A model generated the notes under the pieces. The model saw only the letters and a program-made list of their open reading frames with translations. It was not told the origin of the DNA and ran no database searches. The translations under genes were made by a program, and so were the position numbers. A DNA stretch of 35,751 bases from Dehalococcoidia bacterium (GTDB lineage: Bacteria; Chloroflexota; Dehalococcoidia; DSTF01; JALHUB01), in NCBI GenBank assembly GCA_049511815.1, contig JBEKXP010000005.1:1-35751 (forward strand), written 5' to 3'. Shown piece after piece: positions 4,322 to 35,298 of the stretch (within the stretch, counting starts at the first letter, position 1; each line of letters starts with the position of its first letter).

Positions 4322-6577
4322 ATGACGAAGAAAAAACAGAGAAACCTGGTGATTGTTGAGTCACCGGCGAAGGCGCGGACCTTGGCCGGTCTTTTGGGCC
4401 CGCAATACGACGTCCACGCCTCCATCGGCCACGTGCGCGACCTGCCGAAGACGAAGCTCGGCGTGGACATCGACGACGGCTTTGCGCCGCGTTACGTCGT
4501 CCCGCGCGAGAAGGCGAAGGTGGTGCGACTGCTCAAGGCGGCGGCGGAAGACGCCGACCGCGTCTTCCTGGCGACTGACCCCGATCGCGAAGGCGAGGCG
4601 ATAGCCTGGCATGTCCTCGAGGCCGTGGGGCTGGAGGGCAAGCCGCACCAGCGCGTCGTATTCCACGAAGTGACAAAAGACGCCGTCCTCGACGCCTTCG
4701 CGCATCCGCGCCAGATAAACGAGCGCCTCGTCGACGCCCAGCAGGCGCGCCGCATCCTGGACCGCCTCGTCGGCTACAAGATAAGCCCCGTGCTCTGGCA
4801 GAAGGTCCGGCGCGGGCTCTCAGCGGGACGCGTGCAGTCGGTGGCCGTGCGCATGGTGGTCGAGCGCGAGAAGGAGATAACCGCCTTCGTCCCGCTGGAG
4901 TACTGGACGCTCGACGCGCGCCTGGCGAAAGCGAAGGGCGAGGGGACGCTCACGGCGCGCCTGGCCGGATTGGCCGGCAAGCGCAAGAAACTGGAGATCG
5001 CCAGCGCCGCGGAGTCGGAACGGCTGGTCGCGCTTCTGCAACCGGCGCGCTTCACTGTCATTTCCGTCCGCAAGAAGGACGTCCGCCAGCAGCCGGCGCC
5101 TCCCTTCACGACCAGCAGTATGCAGCAAGAGGCGTCGCGGCGGCTCGGCTTTACGGCGAAGCGCACGATGGCCGTCGCGCAGCAGCTCTACGAGGGCCTT
5201 TCGGTCCGCGGCGGCCAGGTGGGCCTTATCACCTACATGCGCACCGACTCGACGAACGTGGCGGCGACGGCGCTGAGCGAGACGCGCGAGTACATCGCTG
5301 AGCGGTTCGGCGCTTCACTGGTCCCGGCGGCGCCGCGCGTCTTCCGTAAGAAGGCAAAAGGCGCGCAGGAGGCGCACGAGGCGATCCGCCCCACGTCGGT
5401 GCACCGCGAGCCCGCCTCACTGAAAACGGCGCTCAACCGCGACCAGCTACGCCTCTACACGCTCATCTGGCAGCGTATGGTCGCCAGCCAGATGGCAGAC
5501 GCCGTCTACGATCAGACTGCAGTCGAAATCGAGGCGCAGCCGAAGGAAGGAGCGGAGCGCTACCTGTTCCGCGCGGCGCGCAGCTTCCTGCGCTTCCCCG
5601 GCTATCGCCAGGTCTATCAGGAAGCCACGGAGGAGGAGGAAACGGAAGAGAAGCGCCCGCTGCCTGCTCTCAGCGAAGGCGAAGATCTTCACCTGCAGGA
5701 CCTTTTGCCGGAGCAGCACTTCACGGAGCCGCCTCCGCGCTTCACGGAGGCGACGCTAGTGAAAGCGATGGAAGAGAACGGCATTGGGCGGCCGAGCACT
5801 TACGCGCCCATCCTCTCGACGATCCAGGACCGCGGCTACGTCGAGAAGGAAGGCCGGGCGCTGAAGCCCAAAGAGCTCGGCGTCGTCGTCAACGATCTGC
5901 TGGTCAGCTACTTCCCGGAGATAACCGCCGTCAGCTTCACCGCTGGAATGGAAGAAGAGCTGGATGAGATCGCCGGCGGCCAGCGCGAATGGCAGCCGGT
6001 CGTGCGCGACTTCTATAAGCCGCTAGAGGCCGCGCTTTCGGCGGCGGAGGCGGCCCCGCGCGTCGAAGAGAAAACGAGCGAGGTCTGCGACAAGTGCGGC
6101 CGGCCGATGGTGATCCGCTGGGGTCGCTTCGGGCGCTTCCTGGCGTGCAGCGGCTTCCCGGAGTGCAAGAACAGCCGGCCCCTGGAGCGCCAAGAGGAAC
6201 CGGTCCAGGCAACGGACGAGATATGCCCCGTCTGCGGCAAGCCGATGGTCATCCGGCGCGGACGTTTTGGGCCTTTCCTGGCTTGCTCCGACTACCCCAC
6301 CTGTCGCGGCACGCGTCGAATTCTCAACAAGGTCGGCGTCGCCTGCCCGGAGTGCGGCGGCGATGTCGTCGCCAAACGGACCCGCAAGGGTCGCACCTTC
6401 TACGGCTGCGCCAACTACCCGAAGTGCCAGTTCACAAGCTGGTCGCGGCCGCTCGCGGAGCCTTGCCCCGAGTGCGGCGGCGTTGTCGTCGCGCAGGCTG
6501 GCGGCAAGGCGAAATGCTTGAAGTGCAATTGGCGTGGCGCGCTGCCGAAGCGCCAGCCGGCGGAGGCTAGGGCCTAG
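4322..6577 (+). CDS. topA: DNA topoisomerase I with four C-terminal Cys4 zinc ribbons
   Basis: TOPRIM N-terminus (LVIVESPAKARTL, DPDREGEAIAWH), the catalytic Tyr region (GLITYMRTDS) and repeated CxxC...CxxC modules are all present. Confidence 0.95.
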   Translation: MTKKKQRNLVIVESPAKARTLAGLLGPQYDVHASIGHVRDLPKTKLGVDIDDGFAPRYVVPREKAKVVRLLKAAAEDADRVFLATDPDREGEAIAWHVLEAVGLEGKPHQRVVFHEVTKDAVLDAFAHPRQINERLVDAQQARRILDRLVGYKISPVLWQKVRRGLSAGRVQSVAVRMVVEREKEITAFVPLEYWTLDARLAKAKGEGTLTARLAGLAGKRKKLEIASAAESERLVALLQPARFTVISVRKKDVRQQPAPPFTTSSMQQEASRRLGFTAKRTMAVAQQLYEGLSVRGGQVGLITYMRTDSTNVAATALSETREYIAERFGASLVPAAPRVFRKKAKGAQEAHEAIRPTSVHREPASLKTALNRDQLRLYTLIWQRMVASQMADAVYDQTAVEIEAQPKEGAERYLFRAARSFLRFPGYRQVYQEATEEEETEEKRPLPALSEGEDLHLQDLLPEQHFTEPPPRFTEATLVKAMEENGIGRPSTYAPILSTIQDRGYVEKEGRALKPKELGVVVNDLLVSYFPEITAVSFTAGMEEELDEIAGGQREWQPVVRDFYKPLEAALSAAEAAPRVEEKTSEVCDKCGRPMVIRWGRFGRFLACSGFPECKNSRPLERQEEPVQATDEICPVCGKPMVIRRGRFGPFLACSDYPTCRGTRRILNKVGVACPECGGDVVAKRTRKGRTFYGCANYPKCQFTSWSRPLAEPCPECGGVVVAQAGGKAKCLKCNWRGALPKRQPAEARA

Positions 6578-25662: not shown

Positions 25663-25739
25663 TGGTAGCGCATGCGGGATTCGAACCCGCGATCTCCGCC
25701 TTGAGAGGGCGGTGTCCTGGGCCGCTAGACGAATGCGCC
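25663..25739 (-). tRNA. tRNA-Glu (anticodon CUC), CCA encoded
   Basis: Hand-folded cloverleaf: acceptor GGCGCAT/ATGCGCT (G1-U72), D arm GTCT/GGAC, anticodon stem CCGCC/GGCGG with loop CTCTCAA, T arm GCGGG-TTCGAAT-CCCGC. Confidence 0.9.
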
Positions 25740-25794
25740 GCATCTCATTATGCCCGAAACGAGTTCGGCCGACAACAACAGCGCGCTGTTTGAA

Positions 25795-25840
25795 GCTGGC
25801 TGGGGAGGGAGGATTCGAACCCCCGCATACGGATCCAGAG
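25795..25840. repeat. att core, left copy: an orphan 3' fragment of tRNA-Gln
   Basis: 46/46 identity to 35123-35168 by direct alignment. No 5' tRNA half is adjacent. Confidence 0.9.
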
Positions 25841-25959
25841 ACCGCCCCTGCCCATTATAACCAGCGGCAACTACTTGCCGCCAATACTTCATCGTATCTG
25901 TTTTTCGACTCTTCGGGTCGCCGTAACGGTACCTAACGGCAACTAGTTGCGGCCTTTGC

Positions 25960-26635: not shown

Positions 26636-26755
26636 AACGGGGCGGGAGGCTAGACGGCAAAATAGCGCCCTGCCGGGGGAGCGGTAGGAGTGACCGCTCA
26701 TTATGGCAGCGCGGCCGTGGAACTCGACTGCGCCAGCACACCCCGGCAGGACCCT

Positions 26756-28309
26756 CTATCCTCGCGCCTCCAACTCGGCCCAGATGTCCCTTGTCGAAAG
26801 CGTCTGCGGCCGAATGTTGATCGTCCCGCCGTAGATCGTCAGATGGTGGCCGCCCATGTCCTTTGACTCGGCATTGCTGTAGACACGACTTCCACCGGGT
26901 AGGGCTACGGTCTCAGGGCCAGCTTCGCCGACTTCGAAGAGCCCGCTGTAGGGCGTCATACCGCCGCTGGCATACTTCAGTTTCGGGCCACCAGGCACCG
27001 TCTCCTTTTCGCCACCACCGCCGCCGCCGAACAGATCCTCCAGCTTTGAGACGCCGGGAATCTTGCCGAGCGCGTCCCCAAGGTCGCCCACGTGACCGAG
27101 AAGATCCTCAATCTTGCCACCCAGGTCCGGTATTGACCACTCAAGCCCGGCTACGATGTCCGCCCAGCCCCCCATCGGAATGTTCAGCAGATCGAGAGCA
27201 TCGGTGAGCAGCGGGAGTGTGCTAACGGCGAGATGATCAACCGAAATCCCGAGGTTGTGGGTCGCTATGTCGTAGGAAGTCGCCTTCTGGTTCGCGTTGT
27301 CGAACTCAGCGGCGGTATCGGCCGTCTGCTGGTTCACCGTGGGCAGCAAGTCGCTATAGTTCTGAACTACCGGCATCAGCGAGGTCCTGAGCCCGCGCGA
27401 GAATATCGTGGATATGTAGTCCGCCGCGAGCGTGTTGTCGTGCAGGCCGACGAGCTTGGTCATGATCTGATCGAAGATGTCGATGGTGGGGAGCGCGTTC
27501 CCGTTGGTGTCGAGCATCGTAACGCCGAGATGGGCCATTGTTGTCGCAAACGCCGAAGAGTCGGTCTTCCCCGACTGAGCCGCCAACGCGTAGGTCTGCA
27601 CCTTGTTCGTCAGCATCGTCACACCCAGCTGGGCAGCCCCCAGGGAAGAGTGAACGTCAGCCAACATATTGCTCCAGAAAGCCGTCTCTTCGGCGGAGGC
27701 CTGCGTAGCGTCCTCGAACTGCATGGCGGTGTTCTCGAAGTTGCCTCCGAGTACACCGAGAGCACCGACGGCTGTAATCCCCGCCGCCGCGATGCCCAGA
27801 ATGCCGCCAGCAGCATCATCAAGACTGCCGGAGTTAACCAAGTCATCAAGGGCACCTCCCATGCCCGAAATGCCGCCCACGACCGGCCCGAGGTCGCTGT
27901 CTAGGCCACCAAGGGCGCTGCCAAGTTCGCCAGCGCCGGACGCCGCGCCCCCAAAGCCGCCGCTGGCATCGTCAGCCGAACTTGCAGCACCAGCGAGCCC
28001 CGAATCAGCCGCGCTACCAGCGCCGGAAAGCGCCTCCAGTTGACTGGCGGTCTCATCACTGACGACGCCAAGATTGCCAACTGAAGCGTAGGCTTCTTCC
28101 GCGCCCGCTTGCGCTGCCAGTCCGCCAGCTCCGGCGTCCTGCGCGGAAGCGCCGAAGTCGTCGAGTTGGCCTTGGGCGTCTGCTAGAGACGATTGGTCAA
28201 CCGCCTCCATTGCGCTCTGAGTGTCGCCCAGCTTGCCGTTCAACTCCTCAAGCGCCGCTTGAGCATCACCGGAGTCGGCCGTGATGTTGAGGGATAGGTC
28301 CATAGTCAT
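26756..28309 (-). CDS. Tape-measure-like protein (517 aa)
   Basis: The N-terminal half is Ala/Gly/Ser/Asp-rich and helical. A hydrophobic Gly-rich segment (GGILGIAAAGITAVGALGVLGG) is present. The C-terminal motif GLFEVGEAGPETVALPGGSRVYSN resembles one that, from memory, recurs in tail tape-measure proteins. SD AGGAGG lies 5 nt upstream. Confidence 0.55.
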   Translation of the reverse strand: MTMDLSLNITADSGDAQAALEELNGKLGDTQSAMEAVDQSSLADAQGQLDDFGASAQDAGAGGLAAQAGAEEAYASVGNLGVVSDETASQLEALSGAGSAADSGLAGAASSADDASGGFGGAASGAGELGSALGGLDSDLGPVVGGISGMGGALDDLVNSGSLDDAAGGILGIAAAGITAVGALGVLGGNFENTAMQFEDATQASAEETAFWSNMLADVHSSLGAAQLGVTMLTNKVQTYALAAQSGKTDSSAFATTMAHLGVTMLDTNGNALPTIDIFDQIMTKLVGLHDNTLAADYISTIFSRGLRTSLMPVVQNYSDLLPTVNQQTADTAAEFDNANQKATSYDIATHNLGISVDHLAVSTLPLLTDALDLLNIPMGGWADIVAGLEWSIPDLGGKIEDLLGHVGDLGDALGKIPGVSKLEDLFGGGGGGEKETVPGGPKLKYASGGMTPYSGLFEVGEAGPETVALPGGSRVYSNAESKDMGGHHLTIYGGTINIRPQTLSTRDIWAELEARG

Positions 28310-28318
28310 GTCAGCCTC

Positions 28319-28657
28319 CTAGTTAAGCACCTTACCCGGCGGCGGCGGCGCGCCGGTGATGACGCCGCCGGTGCTCCCGTAGTCGCCCGCATGGGGAAGC
28401 GCGTTCGTCGCATTGCCGATGACCTGCTGTCGCTCGCGTTCCGGCAGGCCGTGTCTTGCCTCAAAGGAACGCCCATCGACCAGGAGGTGCTGGTGTTCCT
28501 CAATCTCGAACTTTGTCTTGGCGTCGAGTTGGCGGTAATCGACGCGCACGGCGCCCACGCGCGGCACAGCGCCGATAGTCTTGATGTCGTCAATGACGTT
28601 GGCCAAGCAGCCCGGCGCCATCGTGATCAAGTGCATGTTCTGCTGTCCCTTAGCCAT
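28319..28657 (-). CDS. Hypothetical protein (112 aa)
   Basis: SD GAGGAGG lies 9 nt upstream of the ATG. The gene overlaps the upstream gene by 8 nt. Its stop lies inside the SD of the next gene. Confidence 0.55.
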   Translation of the reverse strand: MAKGQQNMHLITMAPGCLANVIDDIKTIGAVPRVGAVRVDYRQLDAKTKFEIEEHQHLLVDGRSFEARHGLPERERQQVIGNATNALPHAGDYGSTGGVITGAPPPPGKVLN

Positions 28658-29210
28658 GAGCGACTACCTCCTCTGTGATTCGGCGGCGAATCTGTCCGCC
28701 GGGAAAGCCCTCACGCTCTGCGAGCCCGAGCGCCTCTAGTTCGGTAAGTCTTTCGACCTGCGCCGTCGCTGCGGTAGCGACTCTGTTCTGGCGACGATTG
28801 AGAAGCGTAACACGCTCCGCAAACAGCGATTGGAACTTGGCCTCTGCCGGGCCGATCTCTTCGTCAATCTCGTCTAGTCTTTCACTGTCTACTTCATCCT
28901 GGGCAGCATCGAGGGCGACGTTGAGGTCATCTACCCGGAGTTTCACCACGTCGCGTTGGGCCAGAATCCCCCGCCGCTGGCCGGCGAGTTTGCCGAGCGC
29001 CGCCTCGATCCTTTCCACTGTGCTCTCGGCCTCCAGATCGTCGCAGCCCCACCTCAGGCGCTCCGCCTCTAACCGCTGGCCAAGCAGGACTCGCTCTTCG
29101 GCGTCCACTGACGCGAGCCGGTCCTCAAGCTTGCGGCTCTCCTTCTCTGCCTGCCCGAGTTCTCCCTGAATTGTGCCGACTTCCTTCTCTGCTTTGGACA
29201 TATCCTTCAC
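28650..29210 (-). CDS. Coiled-coil protein (186 aa; scaffold- or Sid-like role is speculative)
   Basis: Heptad-rich, highly charged sequence (AEKEVGTIQGELGQAEKESRKLEDRLASVDAEERVLLGQRLEAERL...). The start is GTG at 29210 or ATG at 29201. Confidence 0.6.
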   Translation of the reverse strand: MKDMSKAEKEVGTIQGELGQAEKESRKLEDRLASVDAEERVLLGQRLEAERLRWGCDDLEAESTVERIEAALGKLAGQRRGILAQRDVVKLRVDDLNVALDAAQDEVDSERLDEIDEEIGPAEAKFQSLFAERVTLLNRRQNRVATAATAQVERLTELEALGLAEREGFPGGQIRRRITEEVVAHG

Positions 29211-29213
29211 CCC

Positions 29214-29636
29214 CTATGGCGTTCCGCCGGACTGAATGTTTGCCCACGAGTGAGTAGCATCGACCCAGAAGAAGACTCTTCCCACCTTCAGATCGTTGGT
29301 TGTGGTCGAAATGAGAGCGACCGTGCCGGAGTCCAACAGATAGACGGCACTCCCGCAAGATTGCTGGCTCAGTGGCTCCGTGTTCATCAAGAAAGGCCCC
29401 CCCGACTGTACCTTGCACTTCTTCACACCAGCGGTTGTACTGGTGATGTTTTCGTCAGCAACGCCACAGTAGATGCAGGACGCCGTGTCCGCGCCGACAA
29501 CGAGATAGCCGGTTGACGGGTCAATCATGACGTGTGAGCCTTTGTAGATTCGCTGGTTCGCGGCGACAAGGTAGCTCGTGTAGACCGGCGAGCACTTGAC
29601 AACGACATCGCGGTCTGCAACCAGTGCTGGGGTCAT
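29214..29636 (-). CDS. Beta-rich 140-aa protein, tentatively DUF2190-like (head decoration/cement family)
   Basis: The pattern IYKGSHVMID..G......GVADENI....G...CKVQSGGPF.......G.AVYLLDSGTV.....LKVGRV recalls DUF2190. SD GGGGAG is present. An ATGA overlap joins it to the upstream gene. Confidence 0.5.
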   Translation of the reverse strand: MTPALVADRDVVVKCSPVYTSYLVAANQRIYKGSHVMIDPSTGYLVVGADTASCIYCGVADENITSTTAGVKKCKVQSGGPFLMNTEPLSQQSCGSAVYLLDSGTVALISTTTNDLKVGRVFFWVDATHSWANIQSGGTP

Positions 29637-29818
29637 CGCTCACTCCCCTTCGCCCGCTCATCATCCTCTCGGGTCTCAAGGTAGCGCTTCGCTTCGGCCA
29701 GCCTTTCAGCGCCGACGGCGATCTCTGTCTCAGAGGCACCGGCCGCCTCAAGATTGGCGAGTTCGTCTTCGGCTGAACGGACACGATATGCCGCGTCTTC
29801 AAGTACGGTCCGCGTCAT
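29633..29818 (-). CDS. Small acidic helical protein (61 aa, hypothetical)
   Basis: SD GGAGGG lies 6 nt upstream. ATGA start/stop overlaps occur on both sides. The longer track ORF (to 30016) overlaps the 78-aa gene out of frame. Confidence 0.5.
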   Translation of the reverse strand: MTRTVLEDAAYRVRSAEDELANLEAAGASETEIAVGAERLAEAKRYLETREDDERAKGSER

Positions 29819-30051
29819 CGTCTGCCCTCCAGTAGGTGCGCTTCCATTTTCTCCGCCCAAGCGTCGTTTTCGGACACGACGACCCCAATCCACGGTTGAT
29901 TGCAGGTGTGCACGATGCTCTTCTCCTGTTCGGTAAGTTCGACCGTCCTCACCGGCGCATCGTCGGCAAGATATCTGTCCGTCGCCCGCCGCAACCCCTC
30001 TGTCAACAGACGCCATGCCTCGTTGGTGATGATCATTGTGTTTCTACTCAT
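29815..30051 (-). CDS. Hypothetical protein (78 aa)
   Basis: SD AAGGAGG lies 6 nt upstream. An ATGA overlap joins it to the 211-aa gene. Confidence 0.55.
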   Translation of the reverse strand: MSRNTMIITNEAWRLLTEGLRRATDRYLADDAPVRTVELTEQEKSIVHTCNQPWIGVVVSENDAWAEKMEAHLLEGRR

Positions 30052-30683
30052 GATTGACCTCCTTCGCTTATGATGCTTTCTGCTTCCTGAATCAGTTGTT
30101 GCTCGGGTGTCGGCTGGCGCCCCTCTGTAGACGGCGCCACCTGCTGGTCATCGGCCAGCACGGTGTCTATTAACCACAGCCAGCACTTCGGAGGCATCGC
30201 GAAGTTCGGATCATCAAGGTTGCAGGCGCCGCCGCCACGAACGTCAGGGCGCGCTGGTAGCGCCCGCTCGATGGTGATGAGCATTGAGTCAATCTTGTCG
30301 ATGGCCTTCGACCGCCGGCTCTCGTTGCCAGAAGTGCCGAGAATGCCTTTGCGGTCGCACTCGATGAGCAAGTTCTCTTTCATGATCCGCCGCTCCGCGA
30401 GCATCCGCAGCAGGTTGTCCGTATCGTCGCCTAGCCACGGCCGGCGCTGGCGCTCCAGGCGAACCAAACGGCGCACTCTCTTGCCCAATTTGGCCCTTAT
30501 ACTGGCGGCATTTGCGGGACTGGCATTCAGGCCATGTTTCAAGGCGGCCGTCTGCCGCTGGGCGAGCTGGACCGGACTTAGTGACGGCGGATTATCAGTC
30601 CGTTTGCTGGCCTCTTTTAGGTTCGTTTTCGCCCGCCTGCTAACGCGTTGCTCACGGGATGTTTGCGAAGTAGTTACAGTCAT
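30048..30683 (-). CDS. Hypothetical basic protein (211 aa); a small-terminase-like or DNA-binding role is speculative
   Basis: The N-terminal third is Arg/Lys-rich. It is the first long gene of the coupled chain. No diagnostic motif was recognised. Confidence 0.55.
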   Translation of the reverse strand: MTVTTSQTSREQRVSRRAKTNLKEASKRTDNPPSLSPVQLAQRQTAALKHGLNASPANAASIRAKLGKRVRRLVRLERQRRPWLGDDTDNLLRMLAERRIMKENLLIECDRKGILGTSGNESRRSKAIDKIDSMLITIERALPARPDVRGGGACNLDDPNFAMPPKCWLWLIDTVLADDQQVAPSTEGRQPTPEQQLIQEAESIISEGGQS

Positions 30684-30707: not shown

Positions 30708-30941
30708 TCACGTCTGTATGAACAGCACGCGCCCCTTTGGAGCCAGTAAAGCCGCTAATTTGGCATAGACTTCAGGCGCGATGTGCCGGGTGTAAAATGC
30801 CACGTCACGCTTACTCGGCGGGAAGCGTTCCCACTCACAGCGCGGCTCATAGTGAGGCAAATCGCCGGGAGACACTTCCAGCACGGCGTCAACGGAGTTG
30901 CCCGAAGGTAGAGTCCAACTTCCCAGCAGTAGGCGTCTCAT
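30708..30941 (-). CDS. Hypothetical protein (77 aa)
   Basis: An ORF with a GGAG motif 7 nt upstream. No family was recognised. Confidence 0.4.
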   Translation of the reverse strand: MRRLLLGSWTLPSGNSVDAVLEVSPGDLPHYEPRCEWERFPPSKRDVAFYTRHIAPEVYAKLAALLAPKGRVLFIQT

Positions 30942-31092: not shown

Positions 31093-32886
31093 TTACAGAC
31101 TCCCCCAGTAGCGGAACGGCTTGCCGCGTTTCCCCTCGCCGCACCTTTGCACCTTGCCTTCCGTCATCAAGTCTTTCAGCGCCCCTTGCAGAGTGCTGGG
31201 CAGAATGTCAGCGACAGCGAACTTGGCGTCGGCGAGTGCCACGTCAGTCTTAGAGCCGAGCGCCCGATACTCGATGTCGAGCTCGATAACCAGCGTGTCG
31301 GGCGTCTCATCGAAGCGTGAGAGGGCATGCAGCACGCGGACGTTAGGCTTGGCGTTTCCCTCAGAGCGCTTGAGTGACAACACGATATCGGCGGCGGCGG
31401 CAAATGCCGTGCTACCACGTCCTGACTCGCCGACTTCCCCGCCGCCCTTGCGCTCGTGGCGCACCTGGAGGACGGCCAGGCCCAAGGCAGCGGCGAACAG
31501 TAGCGGCTCCATAGCCTCAAGGCCGGAGCCTGATTGATTCTCCTCTTCTCCCTTCAGTCCGGCGAATTGCGAGAGCGTGTCCACAACCAGCAGGCGGGCG
31601 CCGACACGCTGGCACTCGGCAACGGCGGCGTCAACGATATCCGGCCATTTCATGCCCTTCGTATCGTGGTAGTAGAGGACGTGTAGCGACTCACATTCCA
31701 ACAGCCCGGCACGGCGGAGGTGTTCGCGGAATGTTCGGGGGCGTTCCTCTGTGAGATAGACAACGGGTGTTCCTGCCGCCTGCTCGCCTAGAAACTCCCC
31801 GCCGTTAAGACAGGCGGCTATCATGCGCATGATCAGGGTGGTTTTCCCGCTGGCCTTCAACTTGCCGGTTAGTTCTGTCACACTCCCGGCGGCAAGCCAC
31901 GGCTTCGCGATCCACTCGACTTGAGGCGAGACTTGGGCGGCGATCTCAGCGCCGGTCCAGAACCGGAGCGGGGGCGCCTCTTTGTTGTCCGCGTTCCCCC
32001 GCTTTGCCGCTTCCTTTTTCCAGAAGTCGGAAACCATGCGGGCGACTTCAGCGGCGGGCAGCGGCGGTGGGCCACAGCGGGCCACGTTCCAATTCAAACT
32101 GGCGTCTAGGGCCGCCTGCTGGCCGTCCTGCCAGAAGCGTGCCACCGAGAGCCCGACAACCCGCTTAGCCTTCTCATGGCGCGTTCCTACGGGCGCGTCC
32201 TCTGCCAGGAGACGGGCAGCGCTGTCGCCGCCGACGATAAGCCCGTCCTCTTCGGACTTGCCGTCACGTGGTAGCCGAACATCATTCGGGTCCGTCAGCG
32301 TCAGCGCGTCTAGGAATTCATCAACTGTCCAGGGCGTGCCGGTGGTAGGGTCAAGCATGACGCGGCGCCCGTTGCCGTTCGGCCCGAAGTAGGGCAGGTT
32401 AACGTAGTTGCCGAAGCCGCCCGCGTCTACGCTGTCCTGTTTCGGGAAAACCTCGGTATCGGCTGGCAGTCCGGCGTCGGCTATCGCCCTTGCCGCCACT
32501 CGCCGCGCCCAAGCCGCCTCTACGGGCTCCCGGTAGAACACCCAGACGTGATGGCCCTTAGACTTGCTTCTCTCAATGAACGGGCAGCAGCCGAGGCGAC
32601 GTAGGGAATCATACAGCTTCAGCGCCTTCCCCCATTGCACGAGGTCGGGCTCCCCCTCAAGGTCAAGGTCGATGCATTCCCAGAAGCAAAGGTTGCCGTC
32701 AGTCACGGGGTAGACGCCAATCGCGTTTTCGCCCGCCAGGTGGCGCGCCATAACTTCGAGCGTCAGGGGTTCCTTATTGCAATAGCCCTCGCCCTCGCCG
32801 TAGCAGTCGCGTCGCCCGTCGAAAAGCGTCAATAAGGCCCCGGCGACCTCGATTTGCGATTCGTCAAGGAAGGTTGATACGGGCAT
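31093..32886 (-). CDS. Replication protein: AEP primase-polymerase, PriCT-like linker and RecA-like (AAA_25/DnaB-like) ATPase
   Basis: AEP motifs CIDLDLEG, SKSKGHHVWVFY and EVFPKQ...GNYVNLPYFG are present. Walker A is GKLKASGKTT and Walker B is LLVVDTLSQF. Confidence 0.8.
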   Translation of the reverse strand: MPVSTFLDESQIEVAGALLTLFDGRRDCYGEGEGYCNKEPLTLEVMARHLAGENAIGVYPVTDGNLCFWECIDLDLEGEPDLVQWGKALKLYDSLRRLGCCPFIERSKSKGHHVWVFYREPVEAAWARRVAARAIADAGLPADTEVFPKQDSVDAGGFGNYVNLPYFGPNGNGRRVMLDPTTGTPWTVDEFLDALTLTDPNDVRLPRDGKSEEDGLIVGGDSAARLLAEDAPVGTRHEKAKRVVGLSVARFWQDGQQAALDASLNWNVARCGPPPLPAAEVARMVSDFWKKEAAKRGNADNKEAPPLRFWTGAEIAAQVSPQVEWIAKPWLAAGSVTELTGKLKASGKTTLIMRMIAACLNGGEFLGEQAAGTPVVYLTEERPRTFREHLRRAGLLECESLHVLYYHDTKGMKWPDIVDAAVAECQRVGARLLVVDTLSQFAGLKGEEENQSGSGLEAMEPLLFAAALGLAVLQVRHERKGGGEVGESGRGSTAFAAAADIVLSLKRSEGNAKPNVRVLHALSRFDETPDTLVIELDIEYRALGSKTDVALADAKFAVADILPSTLQGALKDLMTEGKVQRCGEGKRGKPFRYWGSL

Positions 32887-33121: not shown

Positions 33122-33150
33122 TTGACAAAGAGGCGCGCCTTCTGTATCCT
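33122..33150 (+). promoter_or_regulatory. Candidate promoter of the 206-aa gene/integrase operon
   Basis: TTGACA (33122-33127), a 17-nt spacer containing the palindrome aggcgcgcct, then TATCCT (33145-33150). Confidence 0.55.
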
Positions 33151-33277
33151 GATGCCATGGTTGGTTGTAATGACGCGCAAACACTTCATGGTGACATCGT
33201 AGCAGGTGCTCCCAATCCGTCAAGGGCGGTGCGCGCCACTTGCAGCGGCCATAACGCCAAAACGATAGGGGGCGATT

Positions 33278-33898
33278 ATGGGGCGACCGAGGACTGAAGA
33301 ATATTGGATACGGCCCATCAATTACCTAGCGGAGAACGATAAGAAACTCGGGCCAAAGGCCATCCACGCGATACTTGAGAAGAGTGCAACTGACGCGGGT
33401 CAGTCCCATCGTCTCAAGAGCATGCCGAGCCTCAGAACAATCGCGCGCAGAAAGCAGGAATATCTCGACCGCGCGAGCGAAGAGGAGCGCCAGCGCAACC
33501 GCCATGTCCACTGGCCAGACGACATGGGCCTCGTGCTGCCATGGGAGGCAGGCCCCGCCGTGCTAGAACTCCTTAAGTGGCGCCGGGATCACTGGCTGGC
33601 TCGCCCCGCTGTTACTGAAGCCTATTGGTTTTGGCGGGTTACGGCAGTCGTGCCAGCGGCGAACTTCGATTATCGCTTGAAGGCGGCAAGGATTCTTGGC
33701 AGAGACGATGGGCAGATGAAACGGGCCGTCGAGCTATGGCTGGTTTACGGGGGTCCGTTCGCGGGGCCGGATCGGGTGGTCTACGAGGATCGCCTGAGGG
33801 GTACGCCCGAGTTCCCCGGCGACGTGGAAATCGACATAGAGGGGAAAGACATCATAGACGCCATTTACGAGGGCATGGCGAAAGGAGGCCAGTGGTGA
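33278..33898 (+). CDS. Hypothetical protein (206 aa) translationally coupled to the integrase
   Basis: SD-like GGGGG lies 5 nt upstream. Its TGA stop overlaps the integrase GTG (GTGA). A possible HTH occurs near PSLRTIARRKQEY. No family was recognised. Confidence 0.6.
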   Translation: MGRPRTEEYWIRPINYLAENDKKLGPKAIHAILEKSATDAGQSHRLKSMPSLRTIARRKQEYLDRASEEERQRNRHVHWPDDMGLVLPWEAGPAVLELLKWRRDHWLARPAVTEAYWFWRVTAVVPAANFDYRLKAARILGRDDGQMKRAVELWLVYGGPFAGPDRVVYEDRLRGTPEFPGDVEIDIEGKDIIDAIYEGMAKGGQW

Positions 33899-35037
33899 AA
33901 GGCAGCGTAAAGAAGCGCGGCAAGACGTGGCGGATCATCGTTGACATCGGGCGCGACGAGAACGGCAAGCGCCAGCAGAAATGGTATAGCGGCTTCGCCA
34001 CGCGAAGGGCAGCCGAAGCGAAGCTAACCGAGATAAAGGCGTCCCTCCAAAGCGGCGAGTACGTAGAGCCGAGCAAGCGGACGCTTGGGGCCTTCCTTGT
34101 GAAAGAATGGCTGCCCTCTATCGCGGCGTCAGTCCGGCCGTCAACCTCCACGGCTTACAAGATGATATGCGACAAGCGTATCGTGCCCACGCTGGGGAGC
34201 GTGCCCTTGCAGCAACTCAGCGCCGACCAGCTAAACAAGTTGTACGCGCAACTGTTGGCAAACGGGCGCACCAAAAGCAAAGGTGCCCTCAGCCCGCGCA
34301 GCGTGCGCTACGTCCATGCCACCATCCACAAGGCTTTGTCCGACGCCGTAAAGTGGCAGAAGATTCCGCGCAACGTCGCCGACAGCGCTACGCCGCCGAG
34401 ACGCCAGTCGAAAAAGCCGAAGACATGGACGGCAAGCGAGCTCCGGACCTTCCTCGAACACGTCGAGGGCGGCCGTCTCTATGCCGCCTACCTACTCGCT
34501 GCCAGCACGGGCTTACGCCGTGGCGAACTGCTAGGCTTGCGCTGGCGTGACGTAGACATGGAAGCGGGCAGCCTGGCCGTTGTGCAAACACTCTTACAGG
34601 TCAATAACAAACTCGACTTCGGTACGCCGAAGACGGAGAAGGGAAGCCGAAACGTCTGGTTAGACACTCACACAGTTGCCGCCCTACGGTCCCACAGACG
34701 GACACAGGTGGCCGAAAGGCTGGCGTGGGGGCCGGAATACCAGGACAACGACTTGGTTTTCGCCCGTGAGGACGGTACGCCCATACACCCGGACGGCTTC
34801 GGCCGTACCTTCGCCCGTCACGCTAAAGCGGCGGCGCTGCCCACTATCCGCCTTCACGATCTCAGGCACACCCATGCGACGCTGGCGCTTCAGGCGGGCA
34901 TTCCCGCCAAAGTGGTCAGCGAACGGCTCGGCCATGCGAGCATCAGCATTACGTTGGATATCTACAGCCACGTGCTACCGGGGATGCAGGAAGAGGCCGC
35001 GCAGACGGTTGCCGACTTGGTGTTTGCCAACGGCTAG
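33895..35037 (+). CDS. int: Tyrosine-type phage integrase
   Basis: N-terminal SAM-like arm (KKRGKTWRIIVDIGRDENGKRQQKWYSGF) is present. Catalytic motifs are GLRRGELLGLRW, HDLRHTHATLAL and LGHASISITLDIYSHV. SD AAAGGAGG lies 6 nt before the GTG at 33895. Confidence 0.9.
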   Translation: MKGSVKKRGKTWRIIVDIGRDENGKRQQKWYSGFATRRAAEAKLTEIKASLQSGEYVEPSKRTLGAFLVKEWLPSIAASVRPSTSTAYKMICDKRIVPTLGSVPLQQLSADQLNKLYAQLLANGRTKSKGALSPRSVRYVHATIHKALSDAVKWQKIPRNVADSATPPRRQSKKPKTWTASELRTFLEHVEGGRLYAAYLLAASTGLRRGELLGLRWRDVDMEAGSLAVVQTLLQVNNKLDFGTPKTEKGSRNVWLDTHTVAALRSHRRTQVAERLAWGPEYQDNDLVFAREDGTPIHPDGFGRTFARHAKAAALPTIRLHDLRHTHATLALQAGIPAKVVSERLGHASISITLDIYSHVLPGMQEEAAQTVADLVFANG

Positions 35038-35122: not shown

Positions 35123-35168
35123 GCTGGCTGGGGAGGGAGGATTCGAACCCCCGCATACGGATCCAGAG
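35123..35168. repeat. att core, right copy (inside intact tRNA-Gln)
   Basis: 46/46 identity to 25795-25840. Confidence 0.9.
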
Positions 35169-35198
35169 TCCGCTGTCCTACCACTAGACGACTCCCCA
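35125..35198 (-). tRNA. tRNA-Gln (anticodon CUG), CCA encoded
   Basis: Hand-folded cloverleaf: acceptor TGGGGAG/CTCCCCA (U1-A72), D arm GTCT/GGAC, anticodon stem GCGGA/TCCGT with loop CTCTGGA, T arm GGGGG-TTCGAAT-CCTCC, discriminator G. Confidence 0.9.
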
Positions 35199-35298
35199 GC
35201 GGCCATGCCAGTTTAGCATGGAGATGGATCGCCGTAAACCGAACGACTCACACGTAGTGCGGGCATCTTGCCCGCCTCGCCAGGGAAAGGGGAGAAGC

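Follow-up and report, generated by a model that had tools for sequence, protein, structure and literature searches.

A shortened homolog of phage tape measure proteins in a small integrative island of a Dehalococcoidia bacterium

The 35.7-kb window considered here (the whole stretch of Dehalococcoidia contig JBEKXP010000005.1, positions 1 to 35,751) contains a discrete 9.28-kb island, inserted between 51-nucleotide (nt) direct repeats, which encodes a 517-amino-acid (aa) homolog of the phage tape measure protein (TMP). From its sequence relationships we hold with high confidence that this protein is a genuine tape measure homolog, and its alignment with phage TMPs points to the loss of an internal segment. 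We lean towards the view that the island is a phage satellite, or a satellite-like island, that builds its own shortened TMP into the tails of a helper phage. This is close to one suggestion of the original prediction made from this DNA, namely that the element re-specifies helper tail length, and the protein now appears to be an internally shortened TMP of one phage lineage. A bolder version, which we regard as possible but would not wager on, is that the island represents an undescribed Chloroflexota satellite family re-tooling both ends of the helper virion with divergent versions of two helper genes, those for a decoration protein and for a TMP (here about 240 residues shorter), without a chaperone or baseplate hub of its own.

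First, the identification of the protein rests on its relatives rather than on direct profile matches. The 517-aa open reading frame (ORF) is judged, on comparative grounds, to be a real gene because it has a full-length homolog at 49% identity (P0002) and 1193 distant relatives. It begins with an ATG codon that has AGGAGG 6 nt upstream; in the public annotation (P0001, 495 aa) the start is placed 22 codons further in, and the longer form is favored because residues 5–20 are conserved in relatives. Direct scans against Pfam, NCBIfam and PDB sequences gave nothing useful, and the sole PHROG match is weak (phrog_12278, aa 162–376, E 2e-4, tail category). The original prediction counted such a blank, together with a confident structural match to an unrelated family, as its refutation; the blank would have been a misleading test, since bona fide TMPs come out blank as well. 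Two TMPs recognized by position, gp29 of the Geobacillus phage GBSV1 (L005 442–3309) and gp13 of the C. difficile phage phiCDHM11 (L006 1525–3279), have no Pfam tape-measure match at E<=0.1, so that the Pfam miss on the 517-aa protein says little; blank direct scans were accordingly rejected as evidence against TMP identity, and Pfam coverage of the class is patchy. Searches by tblastn against phages gave weak matches of residues 399–508, and the annotated features beneath all of them are tape measure genes; in GBSV1 gp29 and phiCDHM11 gp13 the match falls at the C-terminal end.

More sensitive searches gave a much fuller picture. A word-indexed search recovered a single relative, the full-length P0002 from a Dehalococcoidia metagenome-assembled genome (MAG). 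An exhaustive HMMER search, with residues 160–517 aligned with P0002 as the query, returned 1193 proteins at E<=1e-3 and 39 at E<=1e-10, with library-wide E-values to positional TMPs of 3e-35 (P0003), 2e-31 (P0004) and 3e-29 (P0005). Among the best 67 of these 1193 relatives, PF10145 is present in 31, TMP_3 in four and TMP_2 in three, and among the 25 PHROGs that these 67 hit most, almost every family with a name is “tail length tape measure protein”. In close relatives PF10145 covers the stretch aligned to window residues ~160–330; the profile match extends over the TMP core in P0003–P0011, and PF10145 overlaps this core in P0005, P0029, P0044 and P0059. The resemblance to a tape measure noticed at the outset is thus upheld by 1193 relatives, by their PF10145 and TMP PHROG matches, and by the TMP-slot context of the relatives described below. 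The C-terminal motif pointed out in the original prediction is also real: VGExGPExVxLPxGSxVxSN occurs in 115 of 150 proteins among the matches listed (the window protein and P0002 included), always ~55–90 residues from the C-terminus (aa 460–475, 57 from the end, in the 517-aa protein), and besides these in the GBSV1 and phiCDHM11 TMPs. The C-terminal VGExGPE..LPxGS module would serve in docking at the tail tip. Sequence comparison relates the phiCDHM11 TMP to the diffocin tape measure CD1366, whose structure is solved (E 9e-22; PDB 8v3w_B and 9j1k_J compared) but in which the VGExGPE motif is not conserved, and a sequence search found no solved structure containing the motif.

Four elements are common to the sequences in a five-way alignment: an N-terminus, an acidic low-complexity stretch that varies in length, the hydrophobic segment with the core, and a C-terminal GG...VGEAGxE...LP. 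The Ala/Gly/Ser/Asp-rich character given earlier to the N-terminal region agrees with the composition of residues 1–160, of which these four residues make up 62.5%, with 25 Asp/Glu against a single Lys/Arg; no tandem DNA repeats were found in the low-complexity part of the gene. The three strings quoted earlier are all exact, GGILGIAAAGITAVGALGVLGG standing at aa 168–189, TMLTNKVQ...NGNALP in the center and FEVGEAGPETVALPGGSRVYSN at aa 458–479. An AlphaFold2 model of the protein, built on a two-sequence alignment, is helical to ~aa 414, though at low confidence. At the DNA level, the start of the gene (window 28195–28312; ~38 codons plus 3 nt upstream) is 74% identical to 5628–5745 of the phage contig L013, the start of the TMP gene there, and identity is much higher in these first ~38 codons than in the rest of the sequence; this end of the protein may be specially constrained, or a more recent exchange may account for the similarity.

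The top hydrophobic window of the protein, GILGIAAAGITAVGALGVL (aa 169–187; Kyte–Doolittle 19-residue mean 2.08), is ordinary for the composition, being equaled in 165 of 2000 shuffles; the segment is nevertheless significant because it is kept in every aligned relative, not because of the height of its peak. Outside the core, conservation is highest in this Gly-rich hydrophobic segment and in the C-terminal motif, as would be expected if the TMP entered helper tails chiefly to serve DNA ejection and passage through the membrane, fitting delivery to what the satellite requires, with tail length as a by-product. TMPs do take part in genome injection, for example in HK97, according to the passage of PMC11364771 that cites Cumby et al. 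(2015). As the principal role of the protein this seems improbable to us, given the ordinary hydrophobic peak; it is also a refinement of the ruler swap that we favor rather than a true alternative to it, and the data do not separate the two.

Second, the relatives with readable gene context reveal both what the protein is and what it has lost. P0004 (738 aa) is encoded on a 42-kb phage contig on which a Mu-like portal, a Mu-like protease, a 141-aa gene, a Mu-like gpT capsid, connector-size genes and a 335-aa gene are followed by a 127-aa gene, a ~180-nt gap, the TMP, and then genes of 807 and 571 aa. The layout around P0003, P0005 and P0029 is of the same kind, and in all four the TMP slot comes after tube-size and 120–141-aa chaperone-slot genes and before large distal tail genes. 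Neighbors visible to PHROG profiles are a Dit after the TMP in L013, the contig of P0005, and a major tail protein and a tail protein before the TMP in L015. Because of this tail-module context the relatives are ordinary tape measures. The phage-type gene position, with the chaperone and its frameshift extension before and distal tail or baseplate genes after, is absent from the window, where an ORFan precedes the TMP gene and a small ORF and attL come next; such a position characterizes phage genomes rather than the protein itself. These contexts also bear on an alternative raised in the original prediction, that the protein is a membrane-active or fusogenic structural component of a tailless particle, unrelated to tails. 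Its one hydrophobic segment and the lack of tail genes in the island would suit such a role, but the protein is homologous from end to end to TMP-slot proteins of ordinary tail modules, every relative with readable context sits in such a module, and the island has no recognizable capsid gene of any kind, so that we give this idea hardly any credence.

The loss lies between two matched blocks. BLASTP aligns window residues 1–407 with residues 1–406 of P0005 at 33% identity, and 447–485 with 684–722 at 56%; the gap between the blocks is ~277 residues in P0005 versus 39 in the 517-aa protein. Judged from these alignments, the island protein is a TMP that lacks ~240 (220–260) residues of the middle ruler part of its nearest relatives. 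Tail length amounts to ~1.5 Å per TMP residue. At this ratio the 517-aa protein would specify a tail of ~78 nm, and the 738- and 775-aa phage TMPs tails of 111–116 nm.

Third, the TMP is accompanied by a head gene that points to the same phages. The 140-aa protein encoded upstream in the same operon is 54–56% identical to the product of the small gene in the protease–capsid intergenic slot on the contigs carrying P0004 and P0005, and 63–70% identical to P0154, another gene between a Mu-like protease and a Mu-like gpT capsid. Its AlphaFold2 model (predicted local distance difference test score, pLDDT, 76) resembles decoration or cement proteins in the solved capsids of T1, HFTV1, FCWL1, Pam3, XM1 and TW1 and the head-fiber base of phi29, with a partial match to lambda gpD, and by this model it is classed as a decoration-fold protein. 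In the phage contig L016 (9548–10423) the decoration-protein gene is tandemly duplicated, the 141- and 140-aa products both matching the window protein; in L013 (906–1835) a protein of 309 aa, similar to it at E 6e-21, is possibly a fused or extended decoration protein. The TMP and this one head protein are the only similarities between the island and the ORFs of the related phage contigs, and no DNA common to the island and the candidate helpers, such as a packaging site might leave, was found outside the two structural genes. Sequence relationships trace both of these genes, which belong to the late-type operon of the island, to a single lineage of tailed phages whose heads are Mu-like. The lineage of P0005 is a candidate helper type on circumstantial grounds, because its contig shares an assembly, ERZ25039512, with a 2.3-Mb genome closely related to the window host, the PolA of that genome falling in the same cluster (at least 90%) as the window PolA.

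Fourth, these genes travel on a mobile element whose limits are sharp. In a related 2.28-Mb genome (L033) the site is empty, with the gene order GltX, tRNA-Gln, tRNA-Glu, lyase, PolA, and the window flanks overlap there by exactly the 51 nt, which is why the 9.28 kb can be regarded as a discrete insertion. The host proteins encoded in the flanks cluster, at 90% identity, with proteins that carry the label Dehalococcoidia bacterium. The two copies of the repeat are 98% identical, the GC content of the element is 60.7% versus 66.7% in the flanks, and a fragment from another sample (L020) matches the element at 99.94% identity. The “9-kb element” of the original prediction has accordingly found its ends, in the 51-nt repeats, its tRNA-Gln target and the empty site. 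In a second related genome (L032 6892–8597, compared with window 25663–25845 and 35123–35223), ~1.5 kb with short-chain dehydrogenase and SnoaL-like genes stands between tRNA-Gln and tRNA-Glu instead of the island, and the tRNA pair seems to be a variable spot.

The island also has several features of phage satellites. It is a small integrative element with an integrase and att sites, it has a replication module of its own (an AEP primase with an AAA_25 helicase-type protein), and no genes of an autonomous virion were recognized in it: comparison with Pfam, PHROG and NCBIfam and with the related phage contigs found no capsid, portal, protease, large terminase, tube, chaperone or baseplate gene, with the caveat that the same profiles also miss the tube and chaperone genes of the related phages. 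The absence of a recognizable tail tube, baseplate and chaperone had been remarked on from the letters alone, and it persists in these comparisons. As for genes that might redirect a helper, the decoration protein and TMP are present; a small-terminase role for the 211-aa protein, suggested by a KHGL-type motif, was not confirmed by family or PDB searches.

The only other element found with this TMP lies in the Dehalococcoidia MAG SPRUCE 355 (L002, 10001–13479) and has a different backbone. Scans of genomes, metagenomes and viral contigs with the TMP returned this same MAG only, and scans with the island primase returned distant relatives only, with no TMP nearby. At 49% identity, the two TMPs retain the same complete architecture, down to the hydrophobic segment and the C-terminal motif; we see selection on the TMP in the fact that a second element, on a different backbone, keeps a full-length copy. 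The TMP, the 77-aa gene and the 211-aa gene are the only genes that the two elements have in common. Downstream of the TMP gene in the sibling element come a 100-aa gene and one for a large terminase (Terminase_6N/6C), and a reverse-strand lipoprotein-like gene precedes it; two paralogous zinc-ribbon-type proteins of 178 and 232 aa (mutual E 3e-15) are encoded upstream. For a ~14-kb element with integrases on its flanks, this pairing of a TMP with a terminase is odd.

Could the TMP and decoration genes be functionless leftovers of a heavily deleted prophage, or of acquired phage debris? The order from decoration gene to TMP equals the head-to-tail order of the related phages, the internal shortening could be a deletion scar, and terminase, portal, capsid and tube are all missing. 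Such an origin is nonetheless rather improbable. The ORFs are intact and have good ribosome-binding sites; their divergence from the phage copies (33% and 54–56% identity) is old and not that of recent decay; att sites, integrase and replication gene are intact, with a clean empty site in a related genome; and the sibling element, for all its different backbone, keeps a full-length TMP with conserved termini and motif.

If the island is a satellite that swaps the tail ruler, how would it act? Upon infection by a helper, or its induction, the satellite TMP would compete with the helper TMP while using the chaperone, tube and tip proteins of the helper, giving chimeric tails ~30–40 nm shorter (~78 nm vs. 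111–116 nm). The satellite TMP would then serve the delivery of DNA from the satellite particle, and the decoration protein would act on the capsid built by the helper. A number of observations weigh against this scheme. No helper phage was seen on the 35.7-kb contig. The TMP comes without a recognizable chaperone or baseplate hub gene, in contrast to the PLE satellites discussed below, and the chaperone slot is filled by the 112-aa ORFan, which has no frameshift signature. Neither a terminase small subunit nor a capsid-size factor was confirmed by Pfam, PHROG or PDB searches. Ordinary phages also have TMPs of ~500–600 aa (P0029), so that short length alone proves nothing; the structure prediction for the TMP is uninformative (pLDDT 34); and with only two elements carrying this TMP in the databases searched, its conservation rests on one comparison.

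Some of the same observations would suit a protein that sabotages tails rather than resizing them. A shortened TMP might act, outside any transmissible particle, as a poison subunit that blocks or derails helper tail assembly through the chaperone, tube or tip, and the blocking of helper tails would protect the host population or favor the island. The likely partner-binding ends and the core are kept and the middle is lost, as expected of a dominant-negative version, no cognate chaperone or hub gene is present, and tail assembly is a known target of defenses carried by mobile elements, namely Tab (PMC10884400), Tai (PMC11364771) and Rta (PMC12987554). We nevertheless consider interference unlikely, if the most serious competitor of a ruler swap. 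Known blockers of tail assembly are small and unrelated proteins, not copies of TMPs; the complete TMP architecture, kept in both elements at 49% identity, goes beyond the needs of simple binding; and the decoration protein carried alongside suggests the building of particles. PADLOC gave no match, though that library is older than the Tab, Tai and Rta systems.

The features of the island are collected in Table 1.

Table 1. Features of the island and of its tape measure protein homolog, in window coordinates
Feature	Position	Strand	Remarks
attL	25795..25845	.	51-nt direct repeat, copy of the 3′ part of tRNA-Gln; repeat family D2
Small ORF, ~84 aa	26322..26576	-	Zinc-ribbon-like CGHC...CLIC (CxxC...CxxC), between TMP gene and attL; coding status uncertain
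Terminator-like hairpin	26666..26683	-	~70 nt past the TMP stop codon; consensus scan
TMP homolog, 517 aa	26756..28309	-	Last gene of the leftward operon
TMP residues 445–485	26855..26977	-	C-terminal motif ASGG...VGEAGPExVxLPxGSRVYSNxES
TMP residues ~161–375	27185..27829	-	Core, homologous to the PhageMin_Tail (PF10145) part of relatives
TMP residues 166–190	27740..27814	-	Gly-rich hydrophobic segment, conserved in phage relatives
TMP residues 1–160	27830..28309	-	Conserved N-terminus MxMDLSLxIxxDSxxAQAAL, then acidic low-complexity helical region whose length varies among relatives
112-aa ORFan	28319..28657	-	In the slot of the phage tail assembly chaperone; own GAGGAGG ribosome-binding site
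186-aa protein	28650..29210	-	Highly charged, apparently coiled-coil; occupies the slot of the major capsid gene in related phages
140-aa capsid decoration/cement protein homolog	29214..29636	-	phrog_1731, E 2e-17
61-aa gene	29633..29818	-	Gene call on the 99.9%-identical fragment L020
78-aa gene	29815..30051	-	Gene call on the 99.9%-identical fragment L020
211-aa protein	30048..30683	-	Common to the sibling element; phmmer E 9e-9 vs. L002 ORF 6703–7317
77-aa protein	30708..30941	-	46% identical to a protein of the sibling element (L002)
Primase–helicase	31093..32886	-	AEP primase domain and AAA_25 domain; PF22548 E 7e-25, PF13481 E 4e-19; primase PHROGs
Divergent promoter-like sites	33122..33223	.	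In the gap that separates the leftward operon from the 206-aa and integrase genes, which run rightward; consensus scan
206-aa protein	33278..33898	+	Upstream of integrase; function unassigned
Tyrosine integrase	33625..35037	+	PF00589, PF14657, PF14659; phrog_1 E 3e-79
attR	35123..35173	.	51-nt repeat inside an intact tRNA-Gln(CTG) gene (35125–35198, - strand)

Immediately upstream of the TMP gene lie two ORFs whose positions invite comparison with phages. The 112-aa protein has zero homologs among 5.8 billion proteins and no family, PDB or phage match; the 186-aa protein has weak matches to coiled-coil-type families only and no phage or PDB match, and to call it scaffold-like is a guess. Either protein as a tail chaperone was rejected for want of similarity to the chaperone-slot proteins of L010, L012, L013 and L015, among which those of L010, L013 and L012 resemble one another. 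The two ORFs overlap by 8 nt with a +1 offset, the downstream one having its own ribosome-binding site, an arrangement that, as read from the sequence, looks like coupling and not like a G/GT-type −1 frameshift. A 95-aa ORF at 28306–28593 that overlaps here looks like an off-frame artifact of GC-rich DNA. Beyond the TMP gene, the ~84-aa ORF has no family match; by reading of the sequence, it has a Shine–Dalgarno-like GGAGAG before a TTG start, and the 139-aa ORF listed at this site is probably too long. The nearby hairpin is weak evidence of termination, as terminator-like sites in the region are no commoner than in shuffles.

Further upstream, neither the 61- nor the 78-aa gene product has a family or database match, and the 211-aa protein has no family or PDB match. 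The top Pfam match of the primase domain, PF22548, is named “TOTE conflict system AEP domain” and its PADLOC label is PrimPol (CRISPR adaptation-associated); both matches probably reflect shared AEP ancestry only, and no PADLOC match to defense cargo was found among the island proteins. Between the two divergent transcription units, the consensus scan saw six promoter-like sites versus 1.7 expected in shuffles. On the rightward side, the 206-aa protein has no Pfam, PHROG, NCBIfam or PADLOC match, and its ORF overlaps the listed 470-aa integrase ORF by ~270 nt in a different frame; the latter is probably too long, with a true start near 33.9 kb (~33910), because the integrase domains begin only near ORF residue 96. 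The proteins left unassigned (206, 211, 186 and 112 aa, and four of 61–84 aa) are too few and too small for the missing virion roles named above.

To our knowledge, the prevailing view before 2025 was that satellites adopt the tails of their helpers as they are. The idea of a satellite-encoded tape measure has since lost its novelty, and the statement in the original prediction that it was aware of none is outdated by PLE (PMC12987554), by EPIP (PMC12822802) and by putative tmp genes in some cf-PICIs. The PLE satellites of Vibrio cholerae encode a TMP, its chaperone and often a baseplate hub; PLE virions contain the PLE TMP and not that of the helper ICP1, their chimeric tails are ~10 nm shorter, and deletion of the PLE tmp lowers transduction by 96–99.9% (Mathur, Boyd et al., Nature 2026; PMC12987554). 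This work established that one satellite family swaps in its own TMP and suggested that the habit is wider; PLE-like elements and some of the cf-PICIs likewise have putative tmp genes (PMC12987554, Extended Data Fig. 10). Like PLE, the island is a small integrative element without tail tube, sheath or fibers that carries a distantly related TMP (20% identity in PLE, 33% here) shorter than the phage version (by 95 aa in PLE, by ~220–260 aa here). PLE differs in having a tmp–tac pair and often a baseplate hub, whereas neither chaperone nor hub is recognizable in the island; in its helper, the lytic myovirus ICP1, whereas the phages related to the island have a siphovirus-like layout with Mu-like heads; and in its unrelated backbone and its Vibrio rather than Chloroflexota host. 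PLE is moreover known by experiment and the island from its genes alone, and the two are compared here by description.

The EPIP satellites of Mycolicibacterium aichiense, likewise elements of ~11 kb without tail proteins that encode a TMP, have altered tail lengths and smaller capsids (Qian et al., bioRxiv 2025; PMC12822802). EPIP, as described, is set apart by a serine integrase, a small terminase, a head–tail adaptor, a stopper, a scaffold and a capsid protein, none of which was recognized in the island, and by tails that are longer and variable, whereas the island tail is predicted to be shorter. With P4 the island may share the supply of a satellite decoration protein for a helper-built capsid, the part played by Psu; the island protein is, however, homologous to that of the helper-type phage itself (54–70%), which Psu is not, and P4 has no TMP. 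The 186-aa helical protein as an analogue of Sid, the P4 external scaffold, is a guess. Set beside TP901-type TMPs (PF10145; TIGR01760), the island protein has an apparently helical N-terminal part, the Gly-rich hydrophobic segment, a PF10145-aligned core and the C-terminal VGExGPE...LPxGS motif, but it stays below the Pfam and NCBIfam thresholds, is not flanked by chaperone or distal tail genes, and lacks the long middle segment. Closer in host, the IME1 elements of Dehalococcoides are likewise tRNA-integrated Dehalococcoidia islands with a tyrosine recombinase and an archaeal-type primase–helicase, and were once suspected to be satellites; they measure 21–28 kb, are devoid of tailed-phage proteins, and have been interpreted as filamentous or budding viruses, a proposal of Nesbo et al. 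(bioRxiv 2026; 10.64898/2026.09.15.751708). We rejected the identification of the island with IME1 on the grounds of that size and content, the island having 9.3 kb and two tailed-phage structural genes.

What is new here is the phylum, the unrelated backbone, a ruler without chaperone or hub, and a homology to phage TMPs that can be traced from end to end. The value of the case is limited by there being only two such elements in the databases searched, and by the want of an experimental handle. Read residue by residue, the alignment separates the parts of a TMP that are retained (the N-terminus, the hydrophobic segment, the core and the C-terminal motif) from a middle ruler segment that is expendable. 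Satellites that bear a TMP are probably under-counted, because profile libraries miss many tape measures. If our reading is right, TMP swapping would extend to an unrelated element in a distant and hard-to-culture phylum, in a minimal, ruler-only form. On the bolder version given at the outset, a TMP that keeps its two ends and its core would suffice to capture a foreign chaperone–tube–tip pathway and to set a new tail length.

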